A DNA stretch of 32,000 bases from NCBI RefSeq assembly GCF_003231495.1, contig NZ_PQWO01000009.1, forward strand, positions 183,314 through 215,313, written 5' to 3'. Position numbers and translations under genes: made by a program. The stretch's first letter is position 1; each line of letters starts with the position of its first letter. The notes under the pieces were generated by a model. It was not told where the DNA came from and ran no database searches. It worked only from the letters and a program-made list of their open reading frames with translations. This document shows positions 1 through 21,923 of the stretch, piece after piece. The DNA is from Acaryochloris thomasi RCC1774 (GTDB taxonomy: Bacteria > Cyanobacteriota > Cyanobacteriia > Thermosynechococcales > Thermosynechococcaceae).

Positions 1-1760
1 ACGCATTCGTACATCACGCCGCTGCGTAAGGTGCCCTGCTCCACCGCGTTAGCAATACTGCCGCAGCGACGAATGGCGTTAATCGCCTTGAGGTGATGAC
101 GGTGCCCGCCATGAACGGAGACGCCCCGCTTCATATCCATCCCCAGGGAGGTGCCCATCATGGATTGCTCGATGTCGTGAACGGCGATCGCATTTCCCCC
201 CAGAAGCGCATGAACATACCCCTCTCGAATCAGCCTGTTGAGATGCTCACTACCGCCGGTATGGATGACCACCGGCCCCGCCGTCACCACGACTTTGCCG
301 CCCTGATCTCGAATCCGGCGCAAGTCCCAGGCAATTTGTTCGACGACTAATTCCACGCGACGCTCACTGGAAACGCCAGCGCCCATGAAGCCAAATTCTT
401 CCGATGCGCCTTTTTTGAGCGTTGTCGCTGTGCGCTTGGTGCGAATGCCCTCACTGCCGACCACAACTGATTCGCCGACCTGTAAATCTCTCAGTAGCTT
501 GCAGCGGGCAGCGATACCACTGTTAGTTTGAGTGATTGCGATCGCACCATCCATCCGCTGACCTTGAACCCTGATCCATTGCCCCTCGATCAAGACTTCG
601 GTGGGATAGATCGCCGTCACATAGAAATCATCCGGCGCAACGCCCGCCTGAACAACGGCCTCTAGCTCAGCATCAACCGCTTCTTCCGTGACGCTCACCG
701 CACCGAGGTCCACTAACTGCCCCATAATGTCGGCAATGACGTCCGTATCCGGGGCTGAAACCTTGACTTCTGCAGTCGAAATATCCTGACGCTGTTCGCC
801 CAGATCAAAATTTAGAACCTGGAAACTGCCGCCCCCCGCCACAATCGTATCCAGCGCTCGATTGACTAGACCCGTATCGAGTAAATGGCCTTCAAGATGA
901 ACAATACGACTTTGAATCGTGGAAGCCTGGGGCGAAGCGTGGCGCGGCTCTGTGGTCCTTAGAGTCAGACATTTGGCAGCCCCACCCGCCTTCAGAAATT
1001 CTGTGAGGGGCGTTTCAACCACGGTAAAGCCACAATCGCCGAGGCTTTGCTTGAGGCGATCGCTAACGTGGTTCATCACCACCACGCGATCAATATTTAC
1101 GGCGTTACAGGCAAAGGTAACGGCATCTACCTCCTCAACCGCAATTCGCTTCTCAGCCGGGACACGCCGCTCAATCAAGTGATTGGAGTAGGTGTCAAAA
1201 GCTGGCGGATAGTAGAGCAGATACCCGTCCGTAAGCGGACAAAAGCAGGTATCTAGGTGGTAGAAGCGCCGGTCGACTAACCGCAGGGACAGCACTTCTA
1301 CATCTAACCACTGGGCCAAATAAGGGTGGGAGTCCAGTTCAGAGCGAAACCCGTAGCCCGCCCATAGCCAGCCTCCGGCCCGATCGAGCAGCGCATCTCC
1401 GGCTCCTTCAAAGGGCAGGCTTTTGGGCAACGTATGCACGGTGTAGCCCTGATCTGTAAACCACTGTTGGAAATAGGGTTCTTCACCCTGCCGTTCAGGA
1501 TGGAAAAAACGACTGAGCACGACGGTGTTGTCTAGAACCAGCCCTGCATTAGCGGTAAAAACCATATCTGGCCACCCCGGTTGAGGCTCCACTAGATCAA
1601 CCGTCGCGTAGGTTTTCAAGACCCGATGCAGCTCATCCCACTGCAGTTCAGCACGGTCCCGCGACGAACGATGGATATTGCCCTCCATCCAAGGGTTGAT
1701 CACGTAATCGACATCATAATGATGCGGGGCACACATCAAAATTCGTACTGAATCGGTCAT
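1..1760 (-). CDS. argZ: Bifunctional arginine dihydrolase / ornithine cyclodeaminase (ArgZ/AgrE family), first ~586 codons; the 3' end lies beyond the left window edge
   Basis: Absent from the ORF track because it runs off the window. A reverse-strand ATG at 1760-1758 opens an uninterrupted frame to position 1. The N-terminus (MTDSVRILMCAPHHYDVDYVINPWMEG...MVFTANAGLV...FLKAGGAAKCLTL) matches the guanidino-group-modifying (amidinotransferase/DDAH-like) fold with a C-terminal catalytic Cys. It is followed by a LOR/SDH-like domain (HLEGHLLDTGLVNRALD...KVVVTAGPVVIHTGG...). Confidence 0.8.
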   Translation of the reverse strand, partial: MTDSVRILMCAPHHYDVDYVINPWMEGNIHRSSRDRAELQWDELHRVLKTYATVDLVEPQPGWPDMVFTANAGLVLDNTVVLSRFFHPERQGEEPYFQQWFTDQGYTVHTLPKSLPFEGAGDALLDRAGGWLWAGYGFRSELDSHPYLAQWLDVEVLSLRLVDRRFYHLDTCFCPLTDGYLLYYPPAFDTYSNHLIERRVPAEKRIAVEEVDAVTFACNAVNIDRVVVMNHVSDRLKQSLGDCGFTVVETPLTEFLKAGGAAKCLTLRTTEPRHASPQASTIQSRIVHLEGHLLDTGLVNRALDTIVAGGGSFQVLNFDLGEQRQDISTAEVKVSAPDTDVIADIMGQLVDLGAVSVTEEAVDAELEAVVQAGVAPDDFYVTAIYPTEVLIEGQWIRVQGQRMDGAIAITQTNSGIAARCKLLRDLQVGESVVVGSEGIRTKRTATTLKKGASEEFGFMGAGVSSERRVELVVEQIAWDLRRIRDQGGKVVVTAGPVVIHTGGSEHLNRLIREGYVHALLGGNAIAVHDIEQSMMGTSLGMDMKRGVSVHGGHRHHLKAINAIRRCGSIANAVEQGTLRSGVMYEC

Positions 1761-4624: not shown

Positions 4625-5557
4625 ATGTCAAATTCTTATTCCTTGATGATTCATGGTGGTTCAGGTTCTTTGGAGGATCTGAAATACGAGGCAGGCGAAG
4701 CCGAGTTCAGGGAGAGCATCAACACAATTCTAGAGAAGGGCCGTCATCGCCTAGAACAAGGAGATAGCGCCCTAGATGTGGTGGAGTACTGCGTAACGCT
4801 TTTAGAGAATGATCGACTTTATAACGCAGGGCGAGGATCTGTTCTCAATGCCAAGGGAAAAGTAGAAATGGATGCCGCGATCATGAGCGGGAGAGATCTA
4901 GGGGCAGGGGCAGTAGCCTGCGTTGAGCAGGTTAAAAACCCGATCGCTGTGGCGCGTCGCGTGCTGGAGAAAGGAGAGCATGTCCTGCTGATGGGGTATG
5001 GAGCATTAGAATTTGCAAAATTGTGCCAGCTCGAAACCTGCCCTGAGGATTATTTCATTACTGAAAACCGGATTCAGCAGTTAGCAGAGGCACAGGCTGC
5101 AGGGCGAATTACGTTAGACCATGAGCGCGTCAAGCCACACTCCGAAAAACTAGGAACAGTGGGAGCTGTTGCCCGCGATCTGCAAGGTGATCTTGCAGCG
5201 GCAACTTCTACGGGGGGATTGGTGAACAATCACTGGGGCCGAGTCGGGGATACGCCAGTCGTTGGGGCGGGCGTATATGCCGACAACCAAAGCTGTGCAG
5301 TCTCGGCAACTGGCTATGGAGAGGAGTTCTTGCGCACGGTGTTAGCGAAAACAATTTCTGTGTTTGTTGAATTTAAGGGCATGGATGCTGAGGCGGCAGC
5401 GAAGGCCGGGGTTGATTATCTAGTCAGGCGCGTGCAGGGAGAGGGTGGAGTGATTGTTATTGATACTGCGGGGCGTTGTGCTGCAGCTCAGTCAACGTCG
5501 GGCCTGATTTGCGGCTGGATTGAGATGGGGGGAGAAGCACACTGCACCTTAGGTTAA
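4625..5557 (+). CDS. iaaA: Isoaspartyl peptidase / L-asparaginase (plant-type asparaginase, Ntn hydrolase); candidate beta-Asp-Arg dipeptidase
   Basis: 310-aa ORF with an autoprocessing/nucleophile site (HSEKLGTVGAVARD), plus YNAGRGSVLN and GDTPVVGAGVYAD motifs typical of the family. Confidence 0.9.
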   Translation: MSNSYSLMIHGGSGSLEDLKYEAGEAEFRESINTILEKGRHRLEQGDSALDVVEYCVTLLENDRLYNAGRGSVLNAKGKVEMDAAIMSGRDLGAGAVACVEQVKNPIAVARRVLEKGEHVLLMGYGALEFAKLCQLETCPEDYFITENRIQQLAEAQAAGRITLDHERVKPHSEKLGTVGAVARDLQGDLAAATSTGGLVNNHWGRVGDTPVVGAGVYADNQSCAVSATGYGEEFLRTVLAKTISVFVEFKGMDAEAAAKAGVDYLVRRVQGEGGVIVIDTAGRCAAAQSTSGLICGWIEMGGEAHCTLG

Positions 5558-5734: not shown

Positions 5735-7687
5735 CTAAATCAGCTCTGGATCAGACATGATTTCTACTAAGGCAGGCCCTTGGTGCGTTAGCGCTTGAGC
5801 GATTGCGTCATCAAGTTCGTTCTGCTGTGTAACTCGGATACCGAACCCACCGCAATTCTGAGCATATTTAGAAAAATCAGGATTGTGCAATGAGGTTTGC
5901 CAGACATCCCATTCGCCTGCCCGCTGCTCTTTAGAGATTTTACCCAACTGATCGTTATGGAGCAGGATATGGGTAATGTTCATCTGGTATTTTACGGCTG
6001 TTGTAAATTCAGCCAAATATTGACCAAAGCCTCCATCTCCTGAGACTGAGATAATGCGGCGCTCATGGCCTGCGGCGGCCCAAGCTCCCATCGCAGCAGG
6101 GAAGGCAAATCCGATGGAGCCAAGGTAGCCCGACATTAAAACGGACTGGGCCTGACATTCAAAGTAGCGACCAAAGGAGTAGGTGTTGTTACCCACATCT
6201 ACGGCAATCACGGCATCGGCAGAGACTTGGCGGGTCATGGCAGCAAAGATAGAGGCTGAGTTTAACCCTTGGCCTCGATCATCGGCTTCGCGACGAGCTT
6301 TTTCAGTTCGCCAAATGGTCCAGTGGTCTTGAATTTGCGATCGCACATCCTCTGTATCCACCTGCCCTGTAAGCGCTGTATTCAACTGCTCCACCACAAC
6401 GCTGATTTCGCCCCAAACCGGCACCTCGACGGGATGGAATTTCCCTAGCGCCAGCGGGTCAAAATCCACTTGGATAATCGGCTTACCAGGATAAATTCCG
6501 GTGTGATTAGAAAACGAGGCTCCTAACACCAGCAACACATCAGCCTCATTCATGAACCAACTGGCAATGGGGGTGCCACTGCGTCCCAAGACTCCGCAGC
6601 CGAGGGGGTGACGGTCCGAGATCTGTCCTTTCCCCTTAAAGGTCGTGAGAATAGGCGCTCCCAATAGTTCTGCAAGTTCCGTAATAGCAGGCATATGGAA
6701 ACGGGCACCATGCCCAACAATGATCACCGGGCGGCGGGATTGCTTGAGGCGATCAATAGCCTCAAGCAACGACTCAGGCGGCGGCGCAATCTGTAAGGGT
6801 GTCATCCGTCCGGCGGGGTTAGAAGCAGGTACATCCACCGCAGGCTGCATCTGAACTTCATCAGGAAAAATCAGGTGAGAGACATTTCGCTCTAATAGGG
6901 CATGTTTGACGGCTAGGGTCATTAACTCAGCGTGTTGGCTGTGGCTGAGCACCGTTTGGCTCCAAGCAGCTACGCCACTGAAGGCGGCCTGTAAATCACA
7001 CTCTTGAAAATTGCCTGTGCCCAAAACCTGAGAATTGACCTGTCCCGTCAAGGCTAAAATCGGAGCGCGATCGACTTTTGCATCCCACATGCCCGTGAGT
7101 AGGTTTGTTGCACCCGGTCCGGCAATAGTTAAGCAGGCCGCAGGTTTACCTGTCAGCTTTGCGTAGGCTGAGGCGGCGAAGGCAGCAGCTCCTTCATGGC
7201 GAATGCCGATATAGGTGAGCTTACCTTGTACCTCTTGACGGCGGAGTGCGTCTGCGAGGCCTAAATTAGAATGACCCACCATGCCGAAGACATGGGTGAT
7301 ACCCCAGTTCACCATCGTTTCCGCCATCACATCACTCACGGTGCGGGTGTGGGGTTGTTCAACGGGTAAGCCGACGTATATGCCATCCGCACGCACCTCT
7401 ACTGGAAAGGTTGCGAGGGCATCATCAACGTCCAAAGCGTCGGGGGACTTGCCGGTTAGCGGGCAGTAGTCCCACCCGTGCCAAGGGCAGCGTAGGAGAC
7501 CGTTTTCAATGGAGCCCTCACCGAGGGGACCGCCTTGGTGGGGACAGCGATTATCGAGGGCACCATATTGGCCTTTGTAATGGGTTAAGGCAAGGCTTTT
7601 ATGGCCCGCCACTACAGTTTTGACACGGCTCTCAGGTAATTCGTCCAAACCTAGAACGCGGTACCACTGGGTTGTTATCTCCGGCAT
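5735..7687 (-). CDS. Rieske [2Fe-2S] domain fused to a thiamine-diphosphate enzyme (pyruvate oxidase / acetolactate synthase-like)
   Basis: Rieske motif CPHQGGPL-x-CPWHGW (CxH-X16-CxxH) in the first ~110 aa. It is followed by ThDP N-domain (GITHVFGMVGHSNLGL...IRHEGAAAFAASAYAKLTGKPAACLTIAGPGATNL) and a ThDP-binding motif (GDGGFGQY...LLHNDQLG). I prefer the ATG at 7687, which is preceded by GAGGAGAGAG, over the TTG at 7702 used by the ORF track. Confidence 0.85.
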   Translation of the reverse strand: MPEITTQWYRVLGLDELPESRVKTVVAGHKSLALTHYKGQYGALDNRCPHQGGPLGEGSIENGLLRCPWHGWDYCPLTGKSPDALDVDDALATFPVEVRADGIYVGLPVEQPHTRTVSDVMAETMVNWGITHVFGMVGHSNLGLADALRRQEVQGKLTYIGIRHEGAAAFAASAYAKLTGKPAACLTIAGPGATNLLTGMWDAKVDRAPILALTGQVNSQVLGTGNFQECDLQAAFSGVAAWSQTVLSHSQHAELMTLAVKHALLERNVSHLIFPDEVQMQPAVDVPASNPAGRMTPLQIAPPPESLLEAIDRLKQSRRPVIIVGHGARFHMPAITELAELLGAPILTTFKGKGQISDRHPLGCGVLGRSGTPIASWFMNEADVLLVLGASFSNHTGIYPGKPIIQVDFDPLALGKFHPVEVPVWGEISVVVEQLNTALTGQVDTEDVRSQIQDHWTIWRTEKARREADDRGQGLNSASIFAAMTRQVSADAVIAVDVGNNTYSFGRYFECQAQSVLMSGYLGSIGFAFPAAMGAWAAAGHERRIISVSGDGGFGQYLAEFTTAVKYQMNITHILLHNDQLGKISKEQRAGEWDVWQTSLHNPDFSKYAQNCGGFGIRVTQQNELDDAIAQALTHQGPALVEIMSDPELI

Positions 7688-7709: not shown

Positions 7710-8441
7710 TTAGATTAGCAATAGCAAGCCGGTATAGAGCGCAATCCCACCGATAAAAGATCCGAAGCAGCTCTTCTTTTCGTCCGGCAATTCTCGCGCC
7801 AATATGTTGAGAATGAGGCTCCCGGCCAAAAAGGACCAGACAATCGAAACGGCTGCTTCATCAAAGCGAGTGGCTTGACCTGCGATCGCACCTACCATAA
7901 TTGCAGCTGTTAAGAGCCAGCGACCTAGTTTGTCATAGGGCTTTTTGTGGTGCTCCCGCAAGCTGTGATCAATGATGAAAAAGTGCAGAGCCACCGCGAT
8001 GAAATACAGAGCGCACTGCAGCAAGGTGTGGTCAGCGATATCTTGGAGCAGGTAACCGAAAATGATGTTCAGTACCGCAAAGGCTGAGATATGAATCCAA
8101 AATACAGCGGGGCTGGTAGTATCAACATCGTTTTCAAAGCGATTTTGCCGTCGAGAAGTGAGGGCCAGAATATCTAGGCCGTAAAACACAAGCAGTCCAA
8201 GGAGGGCCAAGATATAAACGTGATTTTCTAGGTAGGCCACGAAGGGCAAGGCGGAATGTTCTAGCTCTTCCTGGGCATGACTGAGTTCTGGAAAGATTTC
8301 TAGAAAGACATAGCCAATGGAAACGCCGCCGGCAAAGGACATCCAGCGATGTTCAGGGATAACGTTGACAACATTCAGTTTCGAGATGAAGGCATGCATC
8401 AACGCTAAGCCAATCGCTAAATAAAGACCGGGGCCTTCCAT
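7710..8441 (-). CDS. Polytopic membrane protein with His/Glu-rich motifs (possibly a ZIP-like metal transporter)
   Basis: 243-aa ORF with at least 6 hydrophobic helices and LHFFIIDHSLREHH and FPELSHAQEELEHS segments. It lies 22 nt upstream of the Rieske-ThDP gene on the same strand. The family assignment is tentative. Confidence 0.6.
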   Translation of the reverse strand: MEGPGLYLAIGLALMHAFISKLNVVNVIPEHRWMSFAGGVSIGYVFLEIFPELSHAQEELEHSALPFVAYLENHVYILALLGLLVFYGLDILALTSRRQNRFENDVDTTSPAVFWIHISAFAVLNIIFGYLLQDIADHTLLQCALYFIAVALHFFIIDHSLREHHKKPYDKLGRWLLTAAIMVGAIAGQATRFDEAAVSIVWSFLAGSLILNILARELPDEKKSCFGSFIGGIALYTGLLLLI

Positions 8442-8557: not shown

Positions 8558-10105
8558 CTAGAGCCTTTGGCTTTTGATGTGCTCAGCCACTCTTAGGGTT
8601 TGGGCAATGATGGTGAGTGTAGGATTAACAGCACCTGCAGAGACAAAAAAGCTGCCATCTGTGACAAAGACATTATCTAGTTCATGGGGTTTACAGTAAG
8701 GATCCAAGACAGACTGACTCGCATCTGTTCCCATTTTCATCGTGCCCATCGTGTGTCCGAGTGGGACGCCCACCATGCTGCCTAAGTACAAATCAACATT
8801 GTGAGTGCCGGGGTGACAACCAATGCAGTCCAGGAAGTCAGTGAGTCGTTTTTTGAGCTGAGTCGCAGGTTCTACATTATTGGCTTGGTAGTCAAAGACC
8901 ACCTGACCTGAGCTGTCGTAAGAGATCCCGTTTTCGATTCGGGGCAAATCTTCACTTTGGAGCCAAAAGTCTAAAGAGTGGGACGCCATTTCGGCATGGG
9001 TCATCCCATTTAGGGGTTCTGGAGACTCTAATTTCATTAGGGCTTCGTTAAAGTTACCCAGCATTTGAATCAGGCCCATTGGATATTTAAATTCGTCATC
9101 CCCCCAGTAGTAATCGGCCAGGGCTAGCGTTTTTTCAAAGGTGGCATCATTGGGTGTTTTGCTAATGGCGATCAACGTCGCGTTGTTGTGTCCCATAAAG
9201 TTGCGCCCCACTAGGCCCGTGGCGTTGGCGAGACCGTTGGGGTGTTTGGGATGTTGCGATCGCAAAAACAAAAGTGCCGACCCCAAAGCTCCCGCCGCCA
9301 CAATCACTAGGTCTGCCTTATATTCAATCGTTTCCCCCGCCTCAGTTTTCACCACCACTGTCTCCACCTTTCGACCAGAGGCATCGACTTCAAGACGCTC
9401 CACAGGGCTATTGGTTTTCAGAGTCACGTTGTCGTGCTGCAGCGCAGGGCGAATCCCGACAATGTGAGAGTCTGCCTTGATCTCATAGGGATCAGGGTAG
9501 CCATCAAATTGCGGCCATAAATCTAAGCTACTGGTGGCTCCATCTTCTCCGTCATGGCCCATTCGCATTCCCATCGGAATGGGGAACGGATGCAGTCCCT
9601 TGTTCGCTAAATCATCATTGAGTCGCTGAATGCGAGGCTCATGCTGCAGCGGTTCATAGGGATAGGGAGAACTGCGCTTCGGTTCAGTGGGATCGGCTCC
9701 GTCTTCACCGTGAACGTAATACCATTTTTCACTGATCGCGTAGTAAGGCTCTAGATCTGTGTAGGAGATGGGCCAAGCTGGGGAAATGCCGTCATGGTGT
9801 TCAACTTCTTCAAAGTCTTTTTCCCGCAGACGGAAGAGGGCTGATCCGTAGAACTTGGTATTGCCGCCCACGTAGTAGTGGGGGTGGCTAGGGCGGAAGG
9901 GTTCCCCCTCGTGATACCAGGTAACGTCGGGAGTGTATCGCTTTTCCACCCAGTTCACATGAGGGTCAAAGTTGTCCATCTCACGAGGGATAAAACCTCC
10001 TTTTTCTAGAATTAAAATACTTTTTCCGGTAGGAGCTAGCGCTCTAGCCATTGTGCCGCCGCCTGCGCCCGTGCCAATGATGATGATGTCGTATTGGTTA
10101 TCCAT
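8558..10105 (-). CDS. GMC-family FAD-dependent oxidoreductase
   Basis: 515-aa ORF. It has an N-terminal dinucleotide fold (YDIIIIGTGAGGGTMA) and a C-terminal GMC signature region (HTMGTMKMGTD...VLDPYCKPHELDNVFVTDGSFFVSAGAVNPTLTI). Confidence 0.85.
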   Translation of the reverse strand: MDNQYDIIIIGTGAGGGTMARALAPTGKSILILEKGGFIPREMDNFDPHVNWVEKRYTPDVTWYHEGEPFRPSHPHYYVGGNTKFYGSALFRLREKDFEEVEHHDGISPAWPISYTDLEPYYAISEKWYYVHGEDGADPTEPKRSSPYPYEPLQHEPRIQRLNDDLANKGLHPFPIPMGMRMGHDGEDGATSSLDLWPQFDGYPDPYEIKADSHIVGIRPALQHDNVTLKTNSPVERLEVDASGRKVETVVVKTEAGETIEYKADLVIVAAGALGSALLFLRSQHPKHPNGLANATGLVGRNFMGHNNATLIAISKTPNDATFEKTLALADYYWGDDEFKYPMGLIQMLGNFNEALMKLESPEPLNGMTHAEMASHSLDFWLQSEDLPRIENGISYDSSGQVVFDYQANNVEPATQLKKRLTDFLDCIGCHPGTHNVDLYLGSMVGVPLGHTMGTMKMGTDASQSVLDPYCKPHELDNVFVTDGSFFVSAGAVNPTLTIIAQTLRVAEHIKSQRL

Positions 10106-10123: not shown

Positions 10124-10870
10124 TTAGTGATCTCGAGCCGTCAGGGGAATGCGATAGCGATCTCCGAAAGGAGGCAGATAATCAAGCTGCAGCGTTTTCC
10201 AGGCATAGGCTCCTGCAGGAATACCGATATCCGCCAGAGTGAGTTCTCCTGTTCTCTCAGGCAAAAGACCTGTTTTCGGTAGGGCCAGCGTCATCGTCCC
10301 CTGGGCATGAATAAAGGCTCCCGGCGTGTCTCCAGTCGTAGAATCAACCCCAGAAGGGATATCAAGCGATAAAATGGACGCATCTAAACGATTGGCCCAC
10401 TCAATTAAATCTAAAGCATTACCTCGGGGAGCCGCTCGGAGACTGTAGCCAATCAAGGCATCAAGAATTAGATCGATCGGTTCATCAGTCGCGAGAAGAT
10501 CCTCAATGGCAATCTCTTGACCATTTGTGGCTTGAAAAATCCGTCGCTGCCAAGCAGGAACTTCTTTGAGCCGCTCAACGGAGGATAGACACAGCTTTAC
10601 GTTGGCTCCTCGGTTGGCTAAATGTCTGGCGGCACAAATGCCACCGCCCCCATTGCCACCGCTTCCAGCCAAGACAATGATGTTGGCCTGCTGCCACTGG
10701 CCGTTGAGAGTTGAGATCGCCTGCAGCGCTAAATTGCGTCCTGCATTTTCCATCATCTGAAATAGATTGGGGCCAGTCTCCTCTGTTGCCACACGGTCGA
10801 CTTCAATCATTTGCTCCGCCGTCACCGAAGGTATTTCCAGGCCCGTATCTGTAAAGAATTTCAGTTCCAT
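10124..10870 (-). CDS. YjeF-N-terminal-domain protein (NAD(P)H-hydrate epimerase-like)
   Basis: 248-aa ORF. LMENAG-like MMENAGRNLA, then VLAGSGGNGGGGICAARHLANRGANV, corresponding to the GxGNNGGDG loop of YjeF_N. The loop Asp is not conserved. Confidence 0.7.
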   Translation of the reverse strand: MELKFFTDTGLEIPSVTAEQMIEVDRVATEETGPNLFQMMENAGRNLALQAISTLNGQWQQANIIVLAGSGGNGGGGICAARHLANRGANVKLCLSSVERLKEVPAWQRRIFQATNGQEIAIEDLLATDEPIDLILDALIGYSLRAAPRGNALDLIEWANRLDASILSLDIPSGVDSTTGDTPGAFIHAQGTMTLALPKTGLLPERTGELTLADIGIPAGAYAWKTLQLDYLPPFGDRYRIPLTARDH

Positions 10871-10926: not shown

Positions 10927-11340
10927 TTAGTAATTTACAGTAGGGTAAACCACTGTCAGATCATCATTTTCCCAATGAGTATCGGCATTGGCTTTACGAG
11001 TTTGCCCCTCCGCCTCCCATTGAGGTTTCGTGTCGCCTAGCCGACCGTTATAAAAAAGGTACAGCTTGTCATTTTCGACAATGTAACTCTTGGGATCAAC
11101 GGGAAAGGTTTTGCCTTCTGAAACCGCTACAGCACAAAAACCACCGTACTGCGGGGCATATTGCGAAGGTGCAGCATCAAATGTTGTCTTATTAGCTTGG
11201 CTACTGAAGTAGTAAATTGCACCGTTATGCGTTGAGGAGATTTCGGTGCTTCCCTCAACGGGTTGATTCTCGAAGTAAGAAACAGGGTCATATCCTTGAA
11301 TTGCAACCCCTGTTTCATTGAGATTTTGCAAGTGTGCCAT
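10927..11340 (-). CDS. YHS-domain protein
   Basis: 137-aa ORF. GYDPVSYF...YAPQYGGFCAVAV...KLYLFYN is the characteristic pattern of YHS-domain proteins. Confidence 0.75.
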   Translation of the reverse strand: MAHLQNLNETGVAIQGYDPVSYFENQPVEGSTEISSTHNGAIYYFSSQANKTTFDAAPSQYAPQYGGFCAVAVSEGKTFPVDPKSYIVENDKLYLFYNGRLGDTKPQWEAEGQTRKANADTHWENDDLTVVYPTVNY

Positions 11341-11454: not shown

Positions 11455-11850
11455 CTAAAATTTAGCCTCGGCTAAAGGAACACCAAATTTCTCACACCAA
11501 ATTGTGAGTTCATCGTAGTTGCCTACATCTAGAGTTGCAGGCAAACGATAAATTTGCTTGCCGCTGTCAAGGTTAAGTCCTGAGAACGTACTAGCACTCG
11601 CAAACGAATCATTGTTTGAAAAGCCCAGGCGAGGGTCAGGGGCGCCATCAAATGAGAAGTCCTCGCCCAATATTAGATAGTAGATATCACCTTGTTTGAC
11701 AATCTCAACTTTGCCGCTGACGGTATGATCGTTTTCCCCAGTGAAACTGGAGGATTGAATCAAACTTGCTCCTTCCAAGACATCAGCCGCTTGAATAACG
11801 GTTGGCGAGAAAGCAAGGATTGTACCGGCTAAAAGTAATGATTTAAGCAT
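11455..11850 (-). CDS. Secreted DM13-domain protein
   Basis: 131-aa ORF with a signal peptide (MLKSLLLAGTILAFSPTVIQA/AD). The DM13-like core is HTVSGKVEIVKQGDIYYLILGEDFSFDGAPDPRLGF. Confidence 0.7.
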   Translation of the reverse strand: MLKSLLLAGTILAFSPTVIQAADVLEGASLIQSSSFTGENDHTVSGKVEIVKQGDIYYLILGEDFSFDGAPDPRLGFSNNDSFASASTFSGLNLDSGKQIYRLPATLDVGNYDELTIWCEKFGVPLAEAKF

Positions 11851-12618: not shown

Positions 12619-15600
12619 CTAATTCTCAATCAACCGTTTTTGATAGTCTTGGACCGTCAGTTTCTGCTCAATATCGGCTCTGACCCGAACGACGCGCTTA
12701 TGAATCTTGCTCAGGCGATGGACAAAGCGAGTTTTCACGTCAGGATTGAGCTTCCTATTAGTGTAAACAGGTGTTCCATTTTTGAGATGAACATCAACGC
12801 CTCTGTTCGTCTGTTGAAAAATAAACACTTCGCCTTCAAATCGTCCGTTTTTACCCAGTATATTGATCACATCTTTCAGCGCAGGATCGAGAGTGTTGGA
12901 ATCAACTGATGGCACGGTTTTCTCAGGCTTCTCTCGGGCGATCGCACCTAATTCTCTGCCCATTTCGAAGGTCATCTTGGCTGCGATGCGAGTAAAGACA
13001 AATGAGATCGCAACTACTGTCCCTCCAATATCAAGAACCTGTTCAGCAACCTGCTTCGCAACGGGTGCTTTTTCTTTAGTCCAGCGCCTGATCTTGACCT
13101 CTTGCTGAGCCTCCCACGCTTTGATATCGTGCTGCTTAATAGCCTCAGACAACGCAGCCAATTCCTGACGTGCTCGTTCAGCCGTCTTCTCCGCCGCACT
13201 GACTTCAGACTGTATTGTCTCGATCTGAGTGCGGATCAGACTGCTCTTCTTCTGCTCCAAATTTGTTTGCGCTTCTGGAGAATCGAGTTCTTCAGACACA
13301 GCGAGAGCAGGAGCAACGGTCGTTCTTTCAGGCGCAGCAACAACTGCAGAGGCCTGGGAAATATAGTTCTGCAAAACAGTCTGTGGCTTAAGACCATTCT
13401 TGAATTGGACCCACAGATTCGTCGGATCATTTTGATCGGACAACTGTGAATCTTCTGTACTTAAGTCACTTTCAAGATCTAGATTTTCGTGAGCGATGGC
13501 AGATTCCTTTCTTTGTTGCTCCTTCTCAGAGACGATTTCAGTCCTAGACTCTGCATCTGATGCCCTCGGTTCTACCGCAAGAGAATCTGTGGCCGTGAAA
13601 GTCCCCCAGAATTTGAAGCCGTTGAGTTGTGTAGGCTTCTGCACTTGTACTAGGAGCTGTGGATTGGATGGGGCATACCGGAACGCTGGATACTCTTGAC
13701 ATAGCTCTCTAACTTGTTGCGCTGCCGACGCATCGCAAAGCAGCGGCAATGGCTCTTTAGACGTCGTTAGCACCACGTCTTTTAAGTTTATATATCGCTT
13801 AGGCACATTCGGCTGACTATCATCATCGAAAAAGTCCGCTGGCTCTGACGGTTTCTGATCGAAGCTGCGATAGGTCTGCAACGCTGCCCGGATCTGCTCT
13901 ACTGTTACTCCTTGCACATAAGCAGTCAGGCTTGCGGCTAAGGCAGAGGCAATGGCAGCCGGCGAACAGCCACGGACTGTCAGCGGCAGATGTGCAACTT
14001 TTTCAATCCGCTTTACTTCGTCTTGCTGCAGAATCGAGAGGTAGCCCTGTTCATAGACGGCAGCGATTCCACCCTGCTGGAGATGAGATCGCAACACCAA
14101 ATTCTCAGGATCCATCGAGAAGTAGGCAACCTGGCCCTGAACCTGCTCCGCCATCGTGACAACCCGCTCGTCATCAGCATTCAGCACAGCATAGCCATCT
14201 GCATGGACAGCGCCAGAAATCACAGATAGCGCTCTCGCCCTGTGGTCAAGCGTACAGGGACTTTGATCCGATGGCACATTCAGGACCACCCCCACATCAC
14301 AGTGCGAGAAGCCTAGCCCCGATCGCAAAATGCTGCTGTGGGAAGTCTCCAAAACAGCCATATCCACCGTCGGATCTTGCAAAATTATCTGAGCGCTTTG
14401 AGCGTCGGTCGCACGGCCCTTTTTGACAGGATACTGACCAATAAAAGCACCATCTGCCGTTGTATAGCCCACAGAGTCCTTCACTTGACCTAAGATATGC
14501 GAGATCAGAGGCGTAGGCGTTTCTGAGCCCCCCGTTTCTGCCACCGCCACCACCGGAATCTGAGTCGGCGCGCCGGCTGGGAACAGCATGTCGAGAATTG
14601 GAGCTGCAACATTTCGGGCCACACCTTCGCTGGGGGCCATATGCATGCGCAGCCCAGGAGCCGCATTGACCTCCACAATCACGCCATCCACGTCTTTTAA
14701 CGGCTGGGTAATATCGGTCGTAATCACATCTATGCCAACAATATCGAGATCGATGATCCGTGAAGCCCGCTCTGCCAGCCACAGCGTATCTGGATGGATC
14801 TCATCAGTCCGGTCAATTGCAGTCCCGCCCGTACTCAGATTGGCATTTGCCCGCAGGTAGCAAATTTGGTCCGGCTGTAAAACGGTATCAAGGGTAAACC
14901 CTTGACGGCTCAGCATTTCATCGGTAGCGTTATCGAGCTTTATTTTAGTGAGCGGCGTATCGTGGCCTTCGCCCCGACGAGCATCTTTATTCTCTAGTTC
15001 AACCAAGTCAAAAATTGTGCTTTGGCCATTACCAACGATATGGGCAGGGACCCGCTCGGCTACCGCGACAACCTTGTGATTAACAACTAAAATTCGATGA
15101 TCTCGGCCCTGATAGAAATGCTCAACAATCACGCCATCAGAGATATCCTTAGCTCGGTCATAGGCAAACTCTGCCTGCCGCCAAGAGCGAATATCAATTG
15201 TGATCCCGCGACCTTGGTTCCCGTCTAGAGGCTTAACCACAATGGGATAGCCGCCCAGGTCATCAATGGCCTCTTCTAGATCGCGAAAGGCATAAATGAC
15301 CTTCCCTAATGGAACGGGAGCGCCCATGCTCGTCAAAATTTCTTTGGTTCTTTCCTTATCACAGGCCAGCTCCACACCCAGAACGTTGCTGTGAGATGTT
15401 AGCGCTGCCTGAATCCGCTTCTGATGCTTGCCGGAACCAAACTGAAACAGATCACAGGTCTCTAGGTGTGTCCAGGGAATGCCTCGGTTTTCTGCTTCTT
15501 GAATCAATGCCTCAGTACTTGCTCCCTGAGCGGCTTCACTCCGTAAATTTCTCAGATCATCTAGATCTATTTGTAGTTCAGATTTGGGATAAACGCCCTT

Positions 15601-16014
15601 ATCAAGGATACTTTGGCATAAACGCAGCGCAGCTCGGGTTGCATAGCGTCCGGCGTCTTCATTTTGGTACTCAATGGCAACCTGATAAGCGTCAGGAGAA
15701 GCTGTCTCGCAAGTACAGCCAAACGCCACTGGCATATCGGCCAATACCTGAAGTTCTAAAGCGACGTGCTTCAAAATATGCCCCATCATGGAGCCTTGTA
15801 GTTCCTGATCTAGAGATGCTCCTCGATATTCTGGGGCATAAAGTTTTTGTTTCAGGCTGGGTAAAGTCTGCGTGAGACCATCCAAAAAGCCTGGAAGAGT
15901 ATTAGAGGGACCATCGGAAACATCCTCCAAATCCAGCAGCACAACGATGAGCTTTGAGCAGCTAACGCTCCAATAGTTTGGACCTCGAAGCGTCTGAGTT
16001 TGAAGGATTTTCAT
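12619..16014 (-). CDS. Cyanophycin synthetase paralog: N and ATP-grasp domains retained, Mur-ligase-like M domain catalytically degenerate and truncated, fused to a ~410-aa uncharacterised C-terminal tail
   Basis: Start set at MKILQTQTLRGPNYWS (ATG 16014), the same N-terminus as cphA at 25484; the track ORF extends 39 codons further upstream. It is collinear with CphA to about residue 720. The P-loop reads VAETGGSETPTPL instead of VTGTNGKTTTTRL. Sequence after ...ALQTYRSFDQKP is unrelated to CphA. Confidence 0.85.
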   Translation of the reverse strand: MKILQTQTLRGPNYWSVSCSKLIVVLLDLEDVSDGPSNTLPGFLDGLTQTLPSLKQKLYAPEYRGASLDQELQGSMMGHILKHVALELQVLADMPVAFGCTCETASPDAYQVAIEYQNEDAGRYATRAALRLCQSILDKGVYPKSELQIDLDDLRNLRSEAAQGASTEALIQEAENRGIPWTHLETCDLFQFGSGKHQKRIQAALTSHSNVLGVELACDKERTKEILTSMGAPVPLGKVIYAFRDLEEAIDDLGGYPIVVKPLDGNQGRGITIDIRSWRQAEFAYDRAKDISDGVIVEHFYQGRDHRILVVNHKVVAVAERVPAHIVGNGQSTIFDLVELENKDARRGEGHDTPLTKIKLDNATDEMLSRQGFTLDTVLQPDQICYLRANANLSTGGTAIDRTDEIHPDTLWLAERASRIIDLDIVGIDVITTDITQPLKDVDGVIVEVNAAPGLRMHMAPSEGVARNVAAPILDMLFPAGAPTQIPVVAVAETGGSETPTPLISHILGQVKDSVGYTTADGAFIGQYPVKKGRATDAQSAQIILQDPTVDMAVLETSHSSILRSGLGFSHCDVGVVLNVPSDQSPCTLDHRARALSVISGAVHADGYAVLNADDERVVTMAEQVQGQVAYFSMDPENLVLRSHLQQGGIAAVYEQGYLSILQQDEVKRIEKVAHLPLTVRGCSPAAIASALAASLTAYVQGVTVEQIRAALQTYRSFDQKPSEPADFFDDDSQPNVPKRYINLKDVVLTTSKEPLPLLCDASAAQQVRELCQEYPAFRYAPSNPQLLVQVQKPTQLNGFKFWGTFTATDSLAVEPRASDAESRTEIVSEKEQQRKESAIAHENLDLESDLSTEDSQLSDQNDPTNLWVQFKNGLKPQTVLQNYISQASAVVAAPERTTVAPALAVSEELDSPEAQTNLEQKKSSLIRTQIETIQSEVSAAEKTAERARQELAALSEAIKQHDIKAWEAQQEVKIRRWTKEKAPVAKQVAEQVLDIGGTVVAISFVFTRIAAKMTFEMGRELGAIAREKPEKTVPSVDSNTLDPALKDVINILGKNGRFEGEVFIFQQTNRGVDVHLKNGTPVYTNRKLNPDVKTRFVHRLSKIHKRVVRVRADIEQKLTVQDYQKRLIEN

Positions 16015-16144
16015 AGTGATAGATGAGTTTCTAATGATGCTACATAGGCCGTTCAAGCCTGGGCTTTGATAAACCGACAGGACTTCAATATAGGCTGAAA
16101 GATTTGAACCCTGAAGTTCACCGGGATACAAAACTCAACAATTA

Positions 16145-16267: not shown

Positions 16268-19200
16268 CTACTCTATGCCCTCAATCGGAGCAAAGCCCTG
16301 TCGCTGAATATTCTCTGTAACAGTACGGGGATCAAGAAACTGTAGTAAATAATCTGGCCCCCCAGCTTTAGAGCCAACCCCTGAAAGCTTATATCCCCCA
16401 AAGGGTTGCCGAGCGACGATCGCACCTGTAATGCTGCGATTGATGTATAAATTCCCTACTTCAAACTCCGTTTTGGCTTGTTCAATATGGGATGGGGTGC
16501 GAGAGTACAGTCCACCCGTGAGCGCGAAGTTCGTGTTGTTTGCGATCGCAACTCCCTCTTCAAAACTCTGCGCCTTAATCACTGACAGAACCGGACCAAA
16601 AATTTCTTCCTGAGCCAGCGAACTGTGCGGATCAACCTCAGTAAAAATCACTGGCCCCACAAAGTAACCCGTCTCAGGCGCAGGCAATTGCAAAGCCAGA
16701 TTAGCTTCCGTCTTACCCTTATCAATCGTTTCACGAATTCGCTGCTGGGCTGCTTCATCAATCACGGGGCCAACCTTGGTCCCCGGATCGGCGGCAATGC
16801 CAACATTCAGCGATTTTGTCGCTTCAACTAGCCGCGCCACAAACGCGTCGTAGACGGATGCTAGAACGACTACCCGAGAGCAAGCTGAACACTTTTGGCC
16901 GCTATAGCCAAAGGCGGAATACACAACTCCCTGGACCGCCTGGTCTAAATCAGCACTTTCATCAACGATTATGGCGTTTTTACCCCCCATTTCAGCTACC
17001 ACACGCTTCAAATGCCTTTGACCGGGCTGCAGAACAGCAGCGTTGGCGTAGATTTCGCACCCCACTTCTTGAGAACCCGTAAACACAATCATCTGGACTG
17101 CGGGATGTTTGACGAGGTGAGCGCCTACGGTGGAACCGCTACCTGGAACGTATTGAAATACCCCTTTAGGTATCCCGGCTTCCACAAGAATTTCGCTAAG
17201 TTTAGCCGCGATCACAGAGGTTACAGCGGCAGGCTTTAGCAAAACACAGTTTCCGGTGACTAGGGCCGCAACCGTCATCCCTGTAGGGATCGCAAGCGGA
17301 AAGTTCCAGGGGGAAATCACCAGCACAATGCCCTTGGGACGGTAGAAGTAGCGATCGCTCTCCCCGGCCACATCGTAGATAATCTTAGGATCCAAACGCT
17401 CCATCTCTGCTGCGTAGTATCGACAGAAATCTACAGCCTCTGAGACTTCTACATCGGCTTGCTGGAGAGGCTTGCCTGCTTCAAACACCATCCAGGCATT
17501 GAGTTCATGACGACGCGCTTCAAGTAGATTTGCGGCCCGTCGCAGGATGTCGGCCCGCTCTTTCGCTGATGTGCGTTTCCAAGTTTGGAAAGCGGCTTTT
17601 GCGGCTGCGATCGCATCCTCTGCCTGAGCAATATTAATCTGCCCGACAGTCCCCACAATTTCTGTCGGATTAGATGGATTAACGGATTGAACCTTCTTCT
17701 CTGTCTGCACCCGTTCTCCATCAATTAGCGGCCAATATTGTTGACCTAACTGTTGTTTGACGGCAGTGAGGGCAGATTCGGCTTGGGTTCGGTGGGTTGC
17801 GATCGCAAAATTAGTATCTGCAGAAGGATCAATCTGAGTCGCGGTCGTCGTCACGGGCATAGGCGTCGGTTCCACTTCGCTACCGTCCTGATCGCCCTCT
17901 CTCCACTGAGGCGCTGCTAACAGTTCTTCAATCGGAGTCTCGGTTAAACTTTGCCGCAGAAAAGAGCTATTGGCAGTGTTCTCTAGCAATCGTCGAATCA
18001 GATAGGCCATCCCTGGAATCAAAGCGCCGTAGGGACAGTAGACTCGTACTCGATGCCCCTGTTTTGCTAACGCTGCTGCTAGGTTGTCGGCCATACCGTA
18101 CAAGACTTGAAATTCAATGTGTCGCTGCGGAATATTGAGGGTTTGAGCAATTGAGATCGCATGGGCCTGAGACCGAACATTGTGGCTACCGATGGCGGCG
18201 TACAGATGCTCATGATTTTCTAAGAGCAACTGTGTCATGCGCTCAAAATTGGCGTCCGTGGAAGACTTGTGATTATAGACGGGCGTGGGCCAATGATTCT
18301 GGCGAGCAATGATGGTCTCTTGATCCCAGTAGGCTCCTTTGATCAGCCGCACCGTGATCGGTTTGCCCCGCTGTTTCGCCCATTCAATCAGATCCTTCAA
18401 ATCACCGTAGCTATCCCGGAGATAGGCTTGGAGTGTGATGCCGATGTTGTTGCGATCGCAAAACTCTTCCTCCATTAACAAAGACTTTAACGTCGCTAGC
18501 GTGGCATCTTTATAGCGGTACTGTTCCATATCAAAATGAACATCGGCACCCACTTCCTGCGCTCGACGGAGGAGAATGCGGATGCGATCGCACACCGTTG
18601 TCTGAGACCCCTCTACATCTAACGGATCAAACTGAGAGTAAAACGCTGTCAACTTTAACGTCACCTGGACCTTAGCTAAATCATCCCCGTCAGCAGCGTC
18701 AATCTGGGGTACCGAAGACCACCGCCGAGAAACCTCTGTAAGCTGTCCCATTAACGCTAGATATTGATCGAGATAAGACTGAGCTTCTTTTTCCGTGATC
18801 ACTGCCTCGCCTAAAACATCGATAGCGAAGGTCATCGATTGTTTACGGAGACGATTAATGGTCTTGAGAACCTGCTTCAGCGTTTCGCCTGCGATATATT
18901 TTTGTGCCAGGGTTGCAACTGAGGTGGACAGAGTCGTCGCCGCAACTTGTCCCGGTATTGAATCGGAAGCCGTGAAGTTAAGCAGCCGTTTCAACGCTTC
19001 CGGTAGTTCTACATCAGGAACGCTCAGATACTCCTGAAGATGACGGGCCATTTCAGCTTTGGTGGTCAAAGACGGCAAACAATCGATCAGACGAAAGAGC
19101 TGCACCCGCAAACTGGGGTTGTCCATTGTCCAATTGAGCAGCTTATCGTCCCACCGGAATTGGTCTTGTATTTTAGCGAGGAGCGATCGCTTTTCTGCGG

Positions 19201-19291
19201 TCTGCGCCAACAGCTCCCGCGCAATGGCCTGGGTCTTTTCTTCATAGAGAGGCGGAGTCGTAAGTTCAGAACGAGACGGATTCACAGTCAT
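16268..19291 (-). CDS. putA: Bifunctional proline dehydrogenase / L-glutamate-gamma-semialdehyde (P5C) dehydrogenase PutA
   Basis: The ~1007-aa ORF has a PRODH barrel region (AIGSHNVRS...EFQVLYGMAD...AYLIRRLLENTANSSF). It also has an ALDH domain (FTGSQEVG, EMGGKNAIIVD, catalytic GQKCSACSR). I prefer the ATG at 19291 (MTVNPSR...) over the TTG at 19312 used in the track. Confidence 0.9.
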   Translation of the reverse strand: MTVNPSRSELTTPPLYEEKTQAIARELLAQTAEKRSLLAKIQDQFRWDDKLLNWTMDNPSLRVQLFRLIDCLPSLTTKAEMARHLQEYLSVPDVELPEALKRLLNFTASDSIPGQVAATTLSTSVATLAQKYIAGETLKQVLKTINRLRKQSMTFAIDVLGEAVITEKEAQSYLDQYLALMGQLTEVSRRWSSVPQIDAADGDDLAKVQVTLKLTAFYSQFDPLDVEGSQTTVCDRIRILLRRAQEVGADVHFDMEQYRYKDATLATLKSLLMEEEFCDRNNIGITLQAYLRDSYGDLKDLIEWAKQRGKPITVRLIKGAYWDQETIIARQNHWPTPVYNHKSSTDANFERMTQLLLENHEHLYAAIGSHNVRSQAHAISIAQTLNIPQRHIEFQVLYGMADNLAAALAKQGHRVRVYCPYGALIPGMAYLIRRLLENTANSSFLRQSLTETPIEELLAAPQWREGDQDGSEVEPTPMPVTTTATQIDPSADTNFAIATHRTQAESALTAVKQQLGQQYWPLIDGERVQTEKKVQSVNPSNPTEIVGTVGQINIAQAEDAIAAAKAAFQTWKRTSAKERADILRRAANLLEARRHELNAWMVFEAGKPLQQADVEVSEAVDFCRYYAAEMERLDPKIIYDVAGESDRYFYRPKGIVLVISPWNFPLAIPTGMTVAALVTGNCVLLKPAAVTSVIAAKLSEILVEAGIPKGVFQYVPGSGSTVGAHLVKHPAVQMIVFTGSQEVGCEIYANAAVLQPGQRHLKRVVAEMGGKNAIIVDESADLDQAVQGVVYSAFGYSGQKCSACSRVVVLASVYDAFVARLVEATKSLNVGIAADPGTKVGPVIDEAAQQRIRETIDKGKTEANLALQLPAPETGYFVGPVIFTEVDPHSSLAQEEIFGPVLSVIKAQSFEEGVAIANNTNFALTGGLYSRTPSHIEQAKTEFEVGNLYINRSITGAIVARQPFGGYKLSGVGSKAGGPDYLLQFLDPRTVTENIQRQGFAPIEGIE

Positions 19292-19440
19292 CAAACAACC
19301 TGCTTCATACAAACCTAGACAATCTTCGACAAACAGGTCGATATTTAATTGGTGTTTTAGAACTGGAGTGCCCCTCCAGCTTCATATCAATCTTAATAAC
19401 TGAAAAGGTATCCCGCACTCAGTCACGCCGTGTCTGCTGA

Positions 19441-21377: not shown

Positions 21378-21923
21378 ATGAATTTCGAAACGCAGATCGA
21401 AAAATGGGTTTCTGAGGACAGCTCAAGAATTCATGCTCTAGAGATAGCCTCCGAACTTAAACTCAACGATTGGTGTCTGGCTGCGGGGTTCGTAAGAAAC
21501 ATGGTTTGGGATAAACTCCATGATCGCCATTTCCCAACACCGCTCAATGACATCGATTTAATCTACTTCAATCGTGAAGAATCTTCGTTGGAAACCGACC
21601 AGGACTTGGAATCCATTCTTAAGACTAAATTGAACAAGCCTTGGTCTGTGAAAAACCAAGCGCGAATGCATCTAAGAAATAAAGATGCGTCATATACATC
21701 GACGGAAGATGCAATGAGTTATTGGGTTGAGGTGGAAACTGCAATTGGAGTCAGGTTAAGCCCTACGGACGGTCTGGAACTTGTTGCACCATTCGGACTT
21801 TCATCGCTGTTTTCAAGTACCGTTACCATTAACGATAAGCGCAGAAAGCCAAAAGAATTTTATGAGCGAGTCCGTTCAAAGAAGTGGCTGCAAACGTGGC
21901 CGAAGTTGAAAATATATGCCTAA
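21378..21923 (+). CDS. Nucleotidyltransferase-family protein (resembles the uncharacterised NTP_transf_6 type), cassette-like ORF 2
   Basis: 181-aa ORF. WCLAAGFVRNMVWDKLH...LNDIDLIYFN matches the GG-VRN-VWD ... DID-xYF pattern of that family, by eye. Confidence 0.6.
   Translation: MNFETQIEKWVSEDSSRIHALEIASELKLNDWCLAAGFVRNMVWDKLHDRHFPTPLNDIDLIYFNREESSLETDQDLESILKTKLNKPWSVKNQARMHLRNKDASYTSTEDAMSYWVEVETAIGVRLSPTDGLELVAPFGLSSLFSSTVTINDKRRKPKEFYERVRSKKWLQTWPKLKIYA

Follow-up and report, generated by a model that had tools for sequence, protein, structure and literature searches.

The window analysed here is a 32,000-nucleotide stretch of the Acaryochloris thomasi RCC1774 genome, and the gene under study occupies positions 5735-7687 of its minus strand, encoding a polypeptide of 650 aa (plus stop) in which a Rieske iron-sulfur domain precedes a complete thiamine diphosphate (ThDP) enzyme. 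The open reading frame (ORF) is uninterrupted from an ATG at 7687-7685 to a stop codon at 5737-5735. The longest frame opens at a TTG (7702-5735), the ATG at 7687 being the likely start of the gene; direct reading of the sequence places a Shine-Dalgarno-like GAGGAG 7 nt before this ATG (7700-7695, minus strand), and the TAA of the neighbouring upstream gene falls at 7712-7710. An initial annotation had described a single 650-aa ORF with a ribosome-binding site over these positions; its length, coordinates and ribosome-binding site stand, whereas its strand has to be corrected to minus. A scan for promoters and terminators at the gene gave matches no more numerous than in shuffled sequence. A database search matched the protein to a 650-aa cluster at 100% identity.

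The translated ORF resolves into a four-domain Pfam architecture, all four domains scoring far above their gathering scores. At the N-terminus (all positions on the minus strand), a Rieske-type ferredoxin domain (aa 1-105, positions 7373-7687; Pfam Rieske, Rieske_4 and Rieske_2, with the Rieske match at aa 7-82, E 3e-16) carries the [2Fe-2S] ligand box C48-P-H50 ... C67-P-W-H70 (positions 7478-7546), with 16 residues between H50 and C67. A short linker (aa 106-115, positions 7343-7372) joins it to the PYR domain (positions 6986-7342; TPP_enzyme_N, aa 116-234, E 2e-35), which holds the cofactor-activating glutamate E165 (7193-7195). The central domain follows (positions 6383-6763; TPP_enzyme_M, aa 309-435, E 3e-32), recognised by Pfam and by alignment to Escherichia coli PoxB and Lactobacillus plantarum pyruvate oxidase (LpPOX), and then the PP domain (positions 5759-6199; TPP_enzyme_C, aa 497-643, E 1e-33), in which GDGG at residues 550-553 is followed by N578-D579 (GDGG to N578, positions 5951-6040) and by a lysine, K583 (5939-5941). 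The initial annotation had read a set of Rieske ligands (CPH-X16-CPWH) ahead of three ThDP domains, as well as a GDG...N cofactor motif; ORF, Pfam and motifs bear out the former, and the latter is present as given above. The domain E-values, together with the conservation of the architecture in hundreds of genomes, are far beyond what chance would produce.

When the family was searched for with each species represented by one genome, at least 596 Rieske-ThDP loci came up; in what follows, phylum counts and identities refer to the best 80 of these, and comparisons of loci to 81 loci. The best 80 represent 14 named phyla and are 66-94% identical to the window's protein: Cyanobacteriota (17), Acidobacteriota (14), Actinomycetota (9), Myxococcota (7), Nitrospirota (6), Pseudomonadota and Gemmatimonadota (5 each), Planctomycetota (3), Calditrichota, Deinococcota and Chloroflexota (2 each), and Rhodothermota, Bacillota and Nitrospinota (1 each). 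Between phyla, identity to the window's protein is still 66-73%, and clustering at 50% reduces the entire family to about three full-length representatives. This is the taxonomic spread that the initial annotation had proposed to examine. Fused homologues of 645-660 aa with 72-94% identity occur in Acaryochloris, Leptothoe, Leptolyngbya, Adonisia, Stenomitos and Xenococcus and in many metagenomes, under generic names only ('thiamine pyrophosphate-binding protein' or 'Rieske 2Fe-2S domain-containing protein').

Of the 81 loci, taken from independent assemblies (closed genomes such as that of Acaryochloris marina MBIC11017 among them), 80 have an uninterrupted fusion. This refutes the view that an assembly or gene-calling artefact merged two genes, to which we attach practically no probability and against which the initial annotation had already argued. 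What that view has in its favour is one locus, L030:9962-11959 on the Nitrospirales chromosome OZ244992.1, where an in-frame TGA lies in the linker between the Rieske part and the ThDP body; this codon may mark a natural split form, may be read through or recoded, or may be a long-read sequencing error.

The ligands C48, H50, C67 and H70 are invariant in all 42 aligned members, and the pattern CPHQGG and CPWHG[WYF] with its 23-residue span is found in 80/81 loci. H70 and the RHE motif are 88-92 residues apart in 79/80 loci, and the protein ends exactly 101 aa past GDGG in 80/80 intact loci. All 66 aligned sequences have E165, and the GDG (G550-D551-G552) and N578 are invariant as well. Mean column conservation is 0.75-0.82 over the three ThDP domains against 0.78 for the Rieske domain, the catalytic motifs all being invariant.

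The claim that no characterised enzyme is known with this architecture is also supported by the generic annotation of the homologues, the lack of a solved structure covering it (see below) and a literature search aimed at Rieske- or rubredoxin-ThDP fusions, which found no study; a paper on the oxygen response of Acaryochloris names a different Rieske fusion gene. The gene is thus real, intact, highly conserved and apparently unstudied, and it is rare within cyanobacteria, having been found in none of 300 other sampled cyanobacterial genomes.

With residues 1-110 as query, the best solved matches are the small oxygenase-system ferredoxins T4moC, NDO ferredoxin, TodB, BphF and CarAc (E 8e-10 to 2e-7). 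The domain scores 59 bits with PF00355 against a cut-off of 20 and shows the ferredoxin-type C-x-H ... C-x-x-H pattern, its boxes reading CPHQGG and CPWHGW and lacking the disulfide cysteines of bc1/b6f Rieske proteins (CTHLGC / CPCHGS). Both the missing cysteines and the matches to soluble ferredoxins place it, as far as sequence can tell, with the low-potential shuttle type.

An AlphaFold 2 (AF2) model of the whole chain, built from a 66-sequence alignment, has a predicted local distance difference test score (pLDDT) of 93.9 and a predicted TM-score of 0.90. Its Rieske domain is beta-rich, with block-mean pLDDT values of 88-97 except at residues 1-10 (78) and 81-90 (75), and the linker block reaches 93-94. 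The linker, short and constant in length, is confidently modelled, which suggests a Rieske domain that is docked with a defined geometry rather than floppy. Foldseek aligns the ThDP body over about 545 columns with LpPOX, PoxB and acetohydroxyacid synthase (AHAS) (2EZ4, 3EYA and 6LPI, E about 1e-46), and no chain among the solved structures spans the Rieske plus ThDP arrangement. Pfam, AF2 and Foldseek agree on the pyruvate oxidase (POX) fold, with PYR, central and PP domains in that order, and the Mg-ThDP motif (activating glutamate, GDG-x26-N(N/D)) is present.

Among solved structures, E. coli PoxB (3EY9/3EYA; reference sequence from NC_000913.3) gives the best sequence match, with residues 115-645 aligned to PoxB 3-527 (E 6e-71), followed by L. 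plantarum pyruvate oxidase, AHAS and the pyruvate:quinone oxidoreductase (PQO) of Corynebacterium glutamicum. The top NCBIfam model is likewise a pyruvate oxidase (NF006377, 404 bits against a cut-off of 742), while PoxB-type pyruvate dehydrogenase models give 296-321 bits, the equivalog cut-offs across the best models being 742-893. The PoxB / pyruvate:quinone oxidoreductase model NF006591 gives 314 bits against a cut-off of 792, and every acetolactate synthase (ALS) model, AHAS/ALS large subunit included, stays under its cut-off and lower than the oxidase models (TIGR00118, 292 against 538). Separate ALS-like paralogues, 29-33% identical to the Rieske-ThDP protein, are encoded in the same genome.

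The equivalents of LpPOX F121, Q122, R264 and E483 are conserved as F227, Q228, R369 and E587, with F227-Q228 aligned to F121-Q122 and R369-S370 to R264-V265. At the position of PoxB F465 and LpPOX F479, which lies between ThDP and FAD (flavin adenine dinucleotide), 41 of 42 members have the lysine K583 instead of phenylalanine. The protein has no counterpart of PoxB 528-572: the alignment stops at PoxB 527 and the protein ends 5 residues further on, without the C-terminal helix (558-568) that serves lipid activation in PoxB and positions Phe465 between ThDP and FAD (PMC7245740).

By these comparisons the enzyme is POX/PoxB-like yet outside PoxB, LpPOX and ALS proper. It very probably binds FAD in its central domain, because its nearest relatives, PoxB, POX and AHAS, are flavoenzymes. 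The substrate would be a small 2-oxo acid, with pyruvate as the default guess because the active-site residues of LpPOX are kept.

Figures for the ThDP module alone come from a tree of 540 columns (LG+G4) in which deep nodes carry only Shimodaira-Hasegawa-like approximate likelihood ratio test (SH-aLRT) support and several outgroups sit on long branches. The 53 rows with a Rieske fusion all group together in a single clade (SH-aLRT 87), within which the 18 cyanobacterial copies (18/18) make up a single well-supported clade nested among other phyla, the window's copy being closest to that of Acaryochloris marina (91%). The sister of the Rieske clade consists of two enzymes fused to rubredoxin (joint clade 100), three further rubredoxin fusions branch just outside (94), and E. 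coli PoxB falls in another clade. Among relatives of the module without a Rieske domain, these rubredoxin-fused enzymes (database proteins P0128, P0134, P0138, P0148 and P0149) stand closest; they are 36-47% identical to it and carry the rubredoxin at the same N-terminal position. The family also includes extended forms: tandem Rieske-Rieske-ThDP variants of 755-758 aa, and an 873-aa variant with two CDGSH domains and a Fer4_19 (4Fe-4S) domain before the Rieske and ThDP parts. Variant database proteins of the CDGSH/Fer4_19, tandem-Rieske and Rieske-GltS types are P0123, P0272, P0276, P0115 and P0282, the last a Rieske-GltS protein whose second, C-terminal Rieske is 75% identical to that of the window's protein.

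It is difficult to account for two unrelated one-electron iron proteins at one and the same place in sister enzymes unless they carry electrons. The initial annotation's suggestion of a built-in one-electron relay gains comparative support in this way, from the rubredoxin sisters, the extended iron-sulfur chains, the loss of the tail by which PoxB is linked to membrane quinone, and a partner binding flavin mononucleotide (FMN), which together support reading the fused iron centre as a relay.

This last partner emerged when ORFs were called and clustered in the 81 loci to find recurrent neighbours. A recurrent partner lies next door in 44 of the 60 loci with adequate flanks. Most frequent is a fusion of about 546 aa joining a Rieske domain to an FMN-binding Glu_synthase domain, directly upstream of the enzyme gene in 29 loci, followed by a 289-aa protein of no family ('c7'; 24/81 loci) and a 252-aa FMN_red-like protein (PF03358; 16 loci, 9 of them cyanobacterial, A. 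marina included). A Ferric_reduct/MsrQ-like membrane domain with a Rieske domain, accompanied by two single-pass proteins and twice fused to one of them, is found in 8 loci, the 243-aa membrane protein of the window in 7 cyanobacterial loci, and a carbonic anhydrase in 5 Nitrospirales loci. In these (L057, L066, L068, L073 and L079) the gene, of the eukaryotic (alpha) type, is directly 3' of the Rieske-ThDP gene; such a neighbour would fit a CO2-releasing reaction. The c7 protein has no Pfam or NCBIfam match and no Foldseek match at E <= 1e-3 (AF2 pLDDT 88.7), and its best VIA-align hits (Z 6.9, 2PLG), to frataxin-like and secretion-chaperone-like alpha/beta sandwiches, are too weak to name a fold.

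Genome-wide, the Rieske-GltS-like protein is present in 20 and the FMN_red-like protein in 11 of 30 enzyme-bearing genomes. Since each of the 30 has at least one of them, and a single genome both, the two look like alternative fillers of a single FMN-partner role. Among cyanobacteria, the haem-Rieske protein occurs in 7/8 enzyme-bearing genomes against 1/300 sampled genomes without the enzyme, and FMN_red in 6/8 against 2/300 (the three exceptions were rechecked), a large contrast, counted without a formal test over related genomes in a group defined by the feature itself.

The window's genome belongs to the FMN_red class, with an FMN_red gene at G000:C15:52190-52945 whose product is 94% identical to that of A. 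marina; neither the Rieske-GltS fusion nor the 289-aa protein was found in it. It also carries the haem-Rieske membrane cassette, at G000:C5 (L082), the haem membrane protein itself being at L082:2620-3726 (G000:C5:48622-49725), with invariant histidine pairs and Rieske ligands, and the Rieske domain of this haem membrane protein is the closest in the genome to that of the Rieske-ThDP protein (41% identity). No MsrP-like gene lies within the three-gene cassette, and its protein p253 matches only 'hypothetical' clusters in ESM Atlas.

Immediately upstream of the enzyme gene in the window, its stop codon 22 nt from the ATG, is the gene for the 243-aa polytopic membrane protein (7710-8441, minus strand). 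A hydropathy scan gives this protein seven hydrophobic segments, and 7 histidines and 6 Glu/Asp residues are invariant across 8 sequences; ESM Atlas relates it (0.97) to 'ZIP zinc transporter family' clusters, a lead drawn from language-model features only. In the 7 cyanobacterial loci the gene precedes the Rieske-ThDP gene, is read in the same direction and mostly adjoins it. A second copy (76% identical) lies directly upstream of the FMN_red gene on G000:C15 (L090:6989-7720, with FMN_red at 6188-6946, both minus strand). In Adonisia and Leptolyngbya the order is membrane gene, enzyme, FMN_red; in the window's genome this order has been split into two loci, each with a copy of the membrane gene. 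A gene for an ACT-domain malic enzyme, which is pyruvate-producing, adjoins the G000:C15 locus in divergent orientation (L090:8000-9391, plus strand).

Farther upstream in the window, Pfam identifies genes for a GMC/FAD oxidoreductase (8558-10105), a YjeF_N protein (10124-10870), a YHS protein (10927-11340) and a DM13 protein (11455-11850), all on the minus strand. A conserved six-gene operon running from DM13 through YHS, YjeF_N, GMC and the membrane gene to the enzyme gene was considered and rejected, as only the 243-aa membrane gene recurs regularly. The others turn up near the enzyme gene in at most two further cyanobacterial loci each: GMC in L011, YHS in L012 and L014, DM13 in L018 and L078, and YjeF_N in none.

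The remainder of the window is largely an island of cyanophycin and arginine catabolism, comprising an ArgZ-like arginine dihydrolase (3-1760, minus strand, cut by the window end), an isoaspartyl peptidase/asparaginase (4625-5557, plus strand) and, on the minus strand, a 1170-aa cyanophycin-synthetase-like protein in which only the N-terminal and ATP-grasp domains are recognised (12619-16131), PutA with proline dehydrogenase and P5C dehydrogenase domains (16268-19312), a canonical 896-aa cyanophycin synthetase (22794-25484) and a cyanophycinase (Peptidase_S51; 25871-26680). This context gives a weak hint of amino-acid-derived 2-oxo acids as substrates, and a weak one because the other Rieske-ThDP loci do not share it. 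Between these genes, a low-GC stretch (0.43 at 20-22 kb) holds a truncated-looking ORF for an integrase N-terminal domain (20137-20565, minus strand), a nucleotidyltransferase gene (21378-21923, plus strand) and a glyoxalase/YycE-like gene (22095-22490, plus strand), and may be a small mobile insertion.

The reading that we favour, and regard as probable, is that the protein is a soluble cytoplasmic 2-oxo-acid dehydrogenase of the POX/PoxB type whose fused Rieske domain acts as a one-electron exit relay. A small 2-oxo acid would add to ThDP and be decarboxylated, and the two electrons of the enamine would pass to the flavin and leave singly via the fused [2Fe-2S] centre. They would then reach an FMN partner that can pair them again, here the 252-aa FMN_red-like protein and in most other phyla the Rieske-GltS-like FMN enzyme, and/or the Rieske domain of the MsrQ-like haem membrane protein where one is present, as at G000:C5. 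Electrons would go to partner flavin and membrane proteins rather than to oxygen or quinone. The direction is taken to be outward because the oxidation of 2-oxo acids is strongly reducing and cannot be driven in reverse by a Rieske ferredoxin, and because the nearest characterised enzymes are oxidative. Beyond the observed architecture, motifs, conservation, partner distribution and sister fusions, we infer the flavin, the direction of flow, the acceptor and the substrate.

Several points weigh against this relay. The phenylalanine found between ThDP and FAD in PoxB and LpPOX is replaced by Lys583, and the internal path may therefore differ or the flavin have another role. The pyruvate oxidase and PoxB cut-offs are missed so widely (404/742 and 314/792 bits) that the substrate need not be pyruvate. 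FAD is predicted by homology only, and the cluster-flavin distance that matters may be one between subunits of a dimer or tetramer. In the window's genome the partners are unlinked to the Rieske-ThDP gene, and the co-occurrence counts carry the restrictions given with them above.

The partner genes could also be read in the opposite sense, with an FMN reductase reducing the Rieske centre, which would feed electrons inward to keep the flavin reduced or to drive a reductive ThDP reaction. The nearest solved Rieske relatives do act downstream of flavin reductases, the partner in 11/30 genomes resembles the 'NADPH-dependent FMN reductase' family PF03358, and there are ThDP enzymes that contain FAD but catalyse reactions without redox chemistry, AHAS and glyoxylate carboligase among them. 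Such inward flow nevertheless seems unlikely to us: Rieske-type ferredoxins have potentials of about -150 mV and POX-type reductive carboxylation needs far lower ones, PoxB and POX as the closest sequence relatives are oxidative, and the GltS-type FMN domain of the alternative partner is an electron consumer in glutamate synthase.

We give somewhat less credit still to a ThDP part that is a non-redox decarboxylase or carboligase under the control of a Rieske domain sensing redox state, O2 or NO. This would suit K583, which stands in place of a phenylalanine tied to electron transfer in PoxB, and the ALS-type NCBIfam scores, which are little below those of the oxidase models although none reaches its cut-off. 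It leaves unexplained, however, the rubredoxin sisters, the tandem Rieske domains and CDGSH/4Fe-4S extensions, the ever-present FMN partner and the membrane haem protein with its own Rieske domain, and a cluster loop invariant over 14 phyla is what would be expected of a docking and electron-transfer surface. Rieske domains of this type also occur fused to various unrelated proteins, both in the window's genome and in others, which might further suggest a tethered ferredoxin serving another enzyme (the GltS-like FMN protein or the haem membrane protein), with the ThDP body as a scaffold or otherwise unrelated. We find this highly improbable, since the ThDP body is even better conserved than the Rieske domain (0.75-0.82 across its three domains against 0.78), its catalytic motifs are all invariant and the length of the linker is fixed.

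A broader proposal goes beyond the exit relay, and we consider it possible but rather doubtful: the Rieske domain could be a common 'plug' by which unrelated cytoplasmic redox enzymes exchange electrons among themselves and with the MsrQ-like haem-Rieske protein as 'socket'. The enzymes so equipped may include the ThDP enzyme, the GltS-type FMN enzyme and two further proteins of the window's genome. These two, paralogues of 582 and 606 aa that are 61% identical (G000:C31, L083:2582-4330, plus strand; G000:C6, L084:1784-3604, minus strand), begin with a Rieske domain, after which some 480 residues have no Pfam or NCBIfam match, and may be further enzymes with the same 'plug'. If the proposal were true, it would describe a modular electron-transfer network not described before, in which the oxidation of 2-oxo acids might be linked to a periplasmic acceptor or might power GltS-like reductive amination directly, without NAD(P)H or free ferredoxin.

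Enzymes of the POX/PoxB type are textbook cases of electron transfer between ThDP and flavin, and, to our knowledge, all characterised ones deliver their electrons to O2 or to a membrane quinone. If the relay is as proposed, exchanging the membrane-binding C-terminal tail for an iron-sulfur centre would constitute a third wiring of this chemistry; at the corresponding position the sister lineages chose rubredoxin. The biochemistry of such a rewiring, in which a ThDP enzyme of this type would carry its own Rieske ferredoxin, is plausible. The family is strongly conserved, has an FMN partner in every genome checked (n=30) and occurs in ecologically important groups (Acaryochloris, marine Leptolyngbya-like cyanobacteria, Nitrospirales, Acidobacteriota and sulfur-oxidising symbionts); as no reaction is assigned to it, it would be a node of central carbon metabolism and of electron metabolism that has gone unrecognised. 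New here are the rubredoxin-fused sisters, the extended iron-sulfur variants, the invariant C-terminus and Lys583, as well as the monophyly and rarity of the cyanobacterial copies and the split, duplicated locus structure in the window's genome.

Among known systems, the closest include E. coli PoxB (pyruvate:ubiquinone oxidoreductase, EC 1.2.5.1, 3EY9/3EYA) and C. glutamicum PQO (9EV3-9EV6), which share the three-domain ThDP fold, the activating glutamate, the GDG...N motif and the F-Q-E active-site stretch, and probably, by homology, oxidative decarboxylation with electrons leaving through the flavin. The Rieske-ThDP enzyme differs from PoxB in lacking the lipid-activation tail (528-572), in having lysine for Phe465 and 105 aa of Rieske domain added in front, in scoring under the equivalog cut-off (314 against 792 bits) and in falling in a separate clade of the tree. 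LpPOX (EC 1.2.3.3; 1POX, 2EZ4, 4FEE) is the top Foldseek match (E 9e-47, TM 0.76-0.83, ~545 columns), and the equivalents of its E59, F121, Q122, R264 and E483 are conserved; unlike the Rieske-ThDP enzyme, LpPOX passes its electrons to O2 and has no iron-sulfur domain, its F479 and V265 are replaced here by lysine and serine, and the NCBIfam cut-offs are again missed.

The rubredoxin-ThDP enzymes resemble the Rieske-ThDP enzyme in carrying a one-electron iron centre at the same N-terminal position and in lacking the C-terminal tail, but this centre is an Fe(Cys)4 rubredoxin rather than a Rieske [2Fe-2S] cluster, and these enzymes are themselves uncharacterised and offer no functional anchor. 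With the Rieske-type ferredoxins of oxygenases the N-terminal domain shares the ligand spacing and the lack of bc1-type disulfide cysteines; those proteins are free-standing shuttles between reductase and oxygenase, whereas in the Rieske-ThDP enzyme it is covalently attached and apparently docked. The membrane partner at G000:C5 has a Ferric_reduct/MsrQ-like domain with invariant histidine pairs, as in MsrQ (YedZ) of the MsrPQ system, from which it differs by its C-terminal Rieske domain and by its own cassette with two single-pass proteins.

A parallel in principle is pyruvate:ferredoxin oxidoreductase (PFOR), a ThDP enzyme in which iron-sulfur clusters of the same polypeptide take the electrons of a 2-oxo acid one at a time. 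PFOR has an unrelated domain organisation, [4Fe-4S] clusters, no flavin, a dependence on CoA and a sensitivity to oxygen; what the two would share is ThDP chemistry with a built-in iron-sulfur electron exit, and if the relay is real, the Rieske-ThDP enzyme would be an oxygen-tolerant functional analogue of PFOR.

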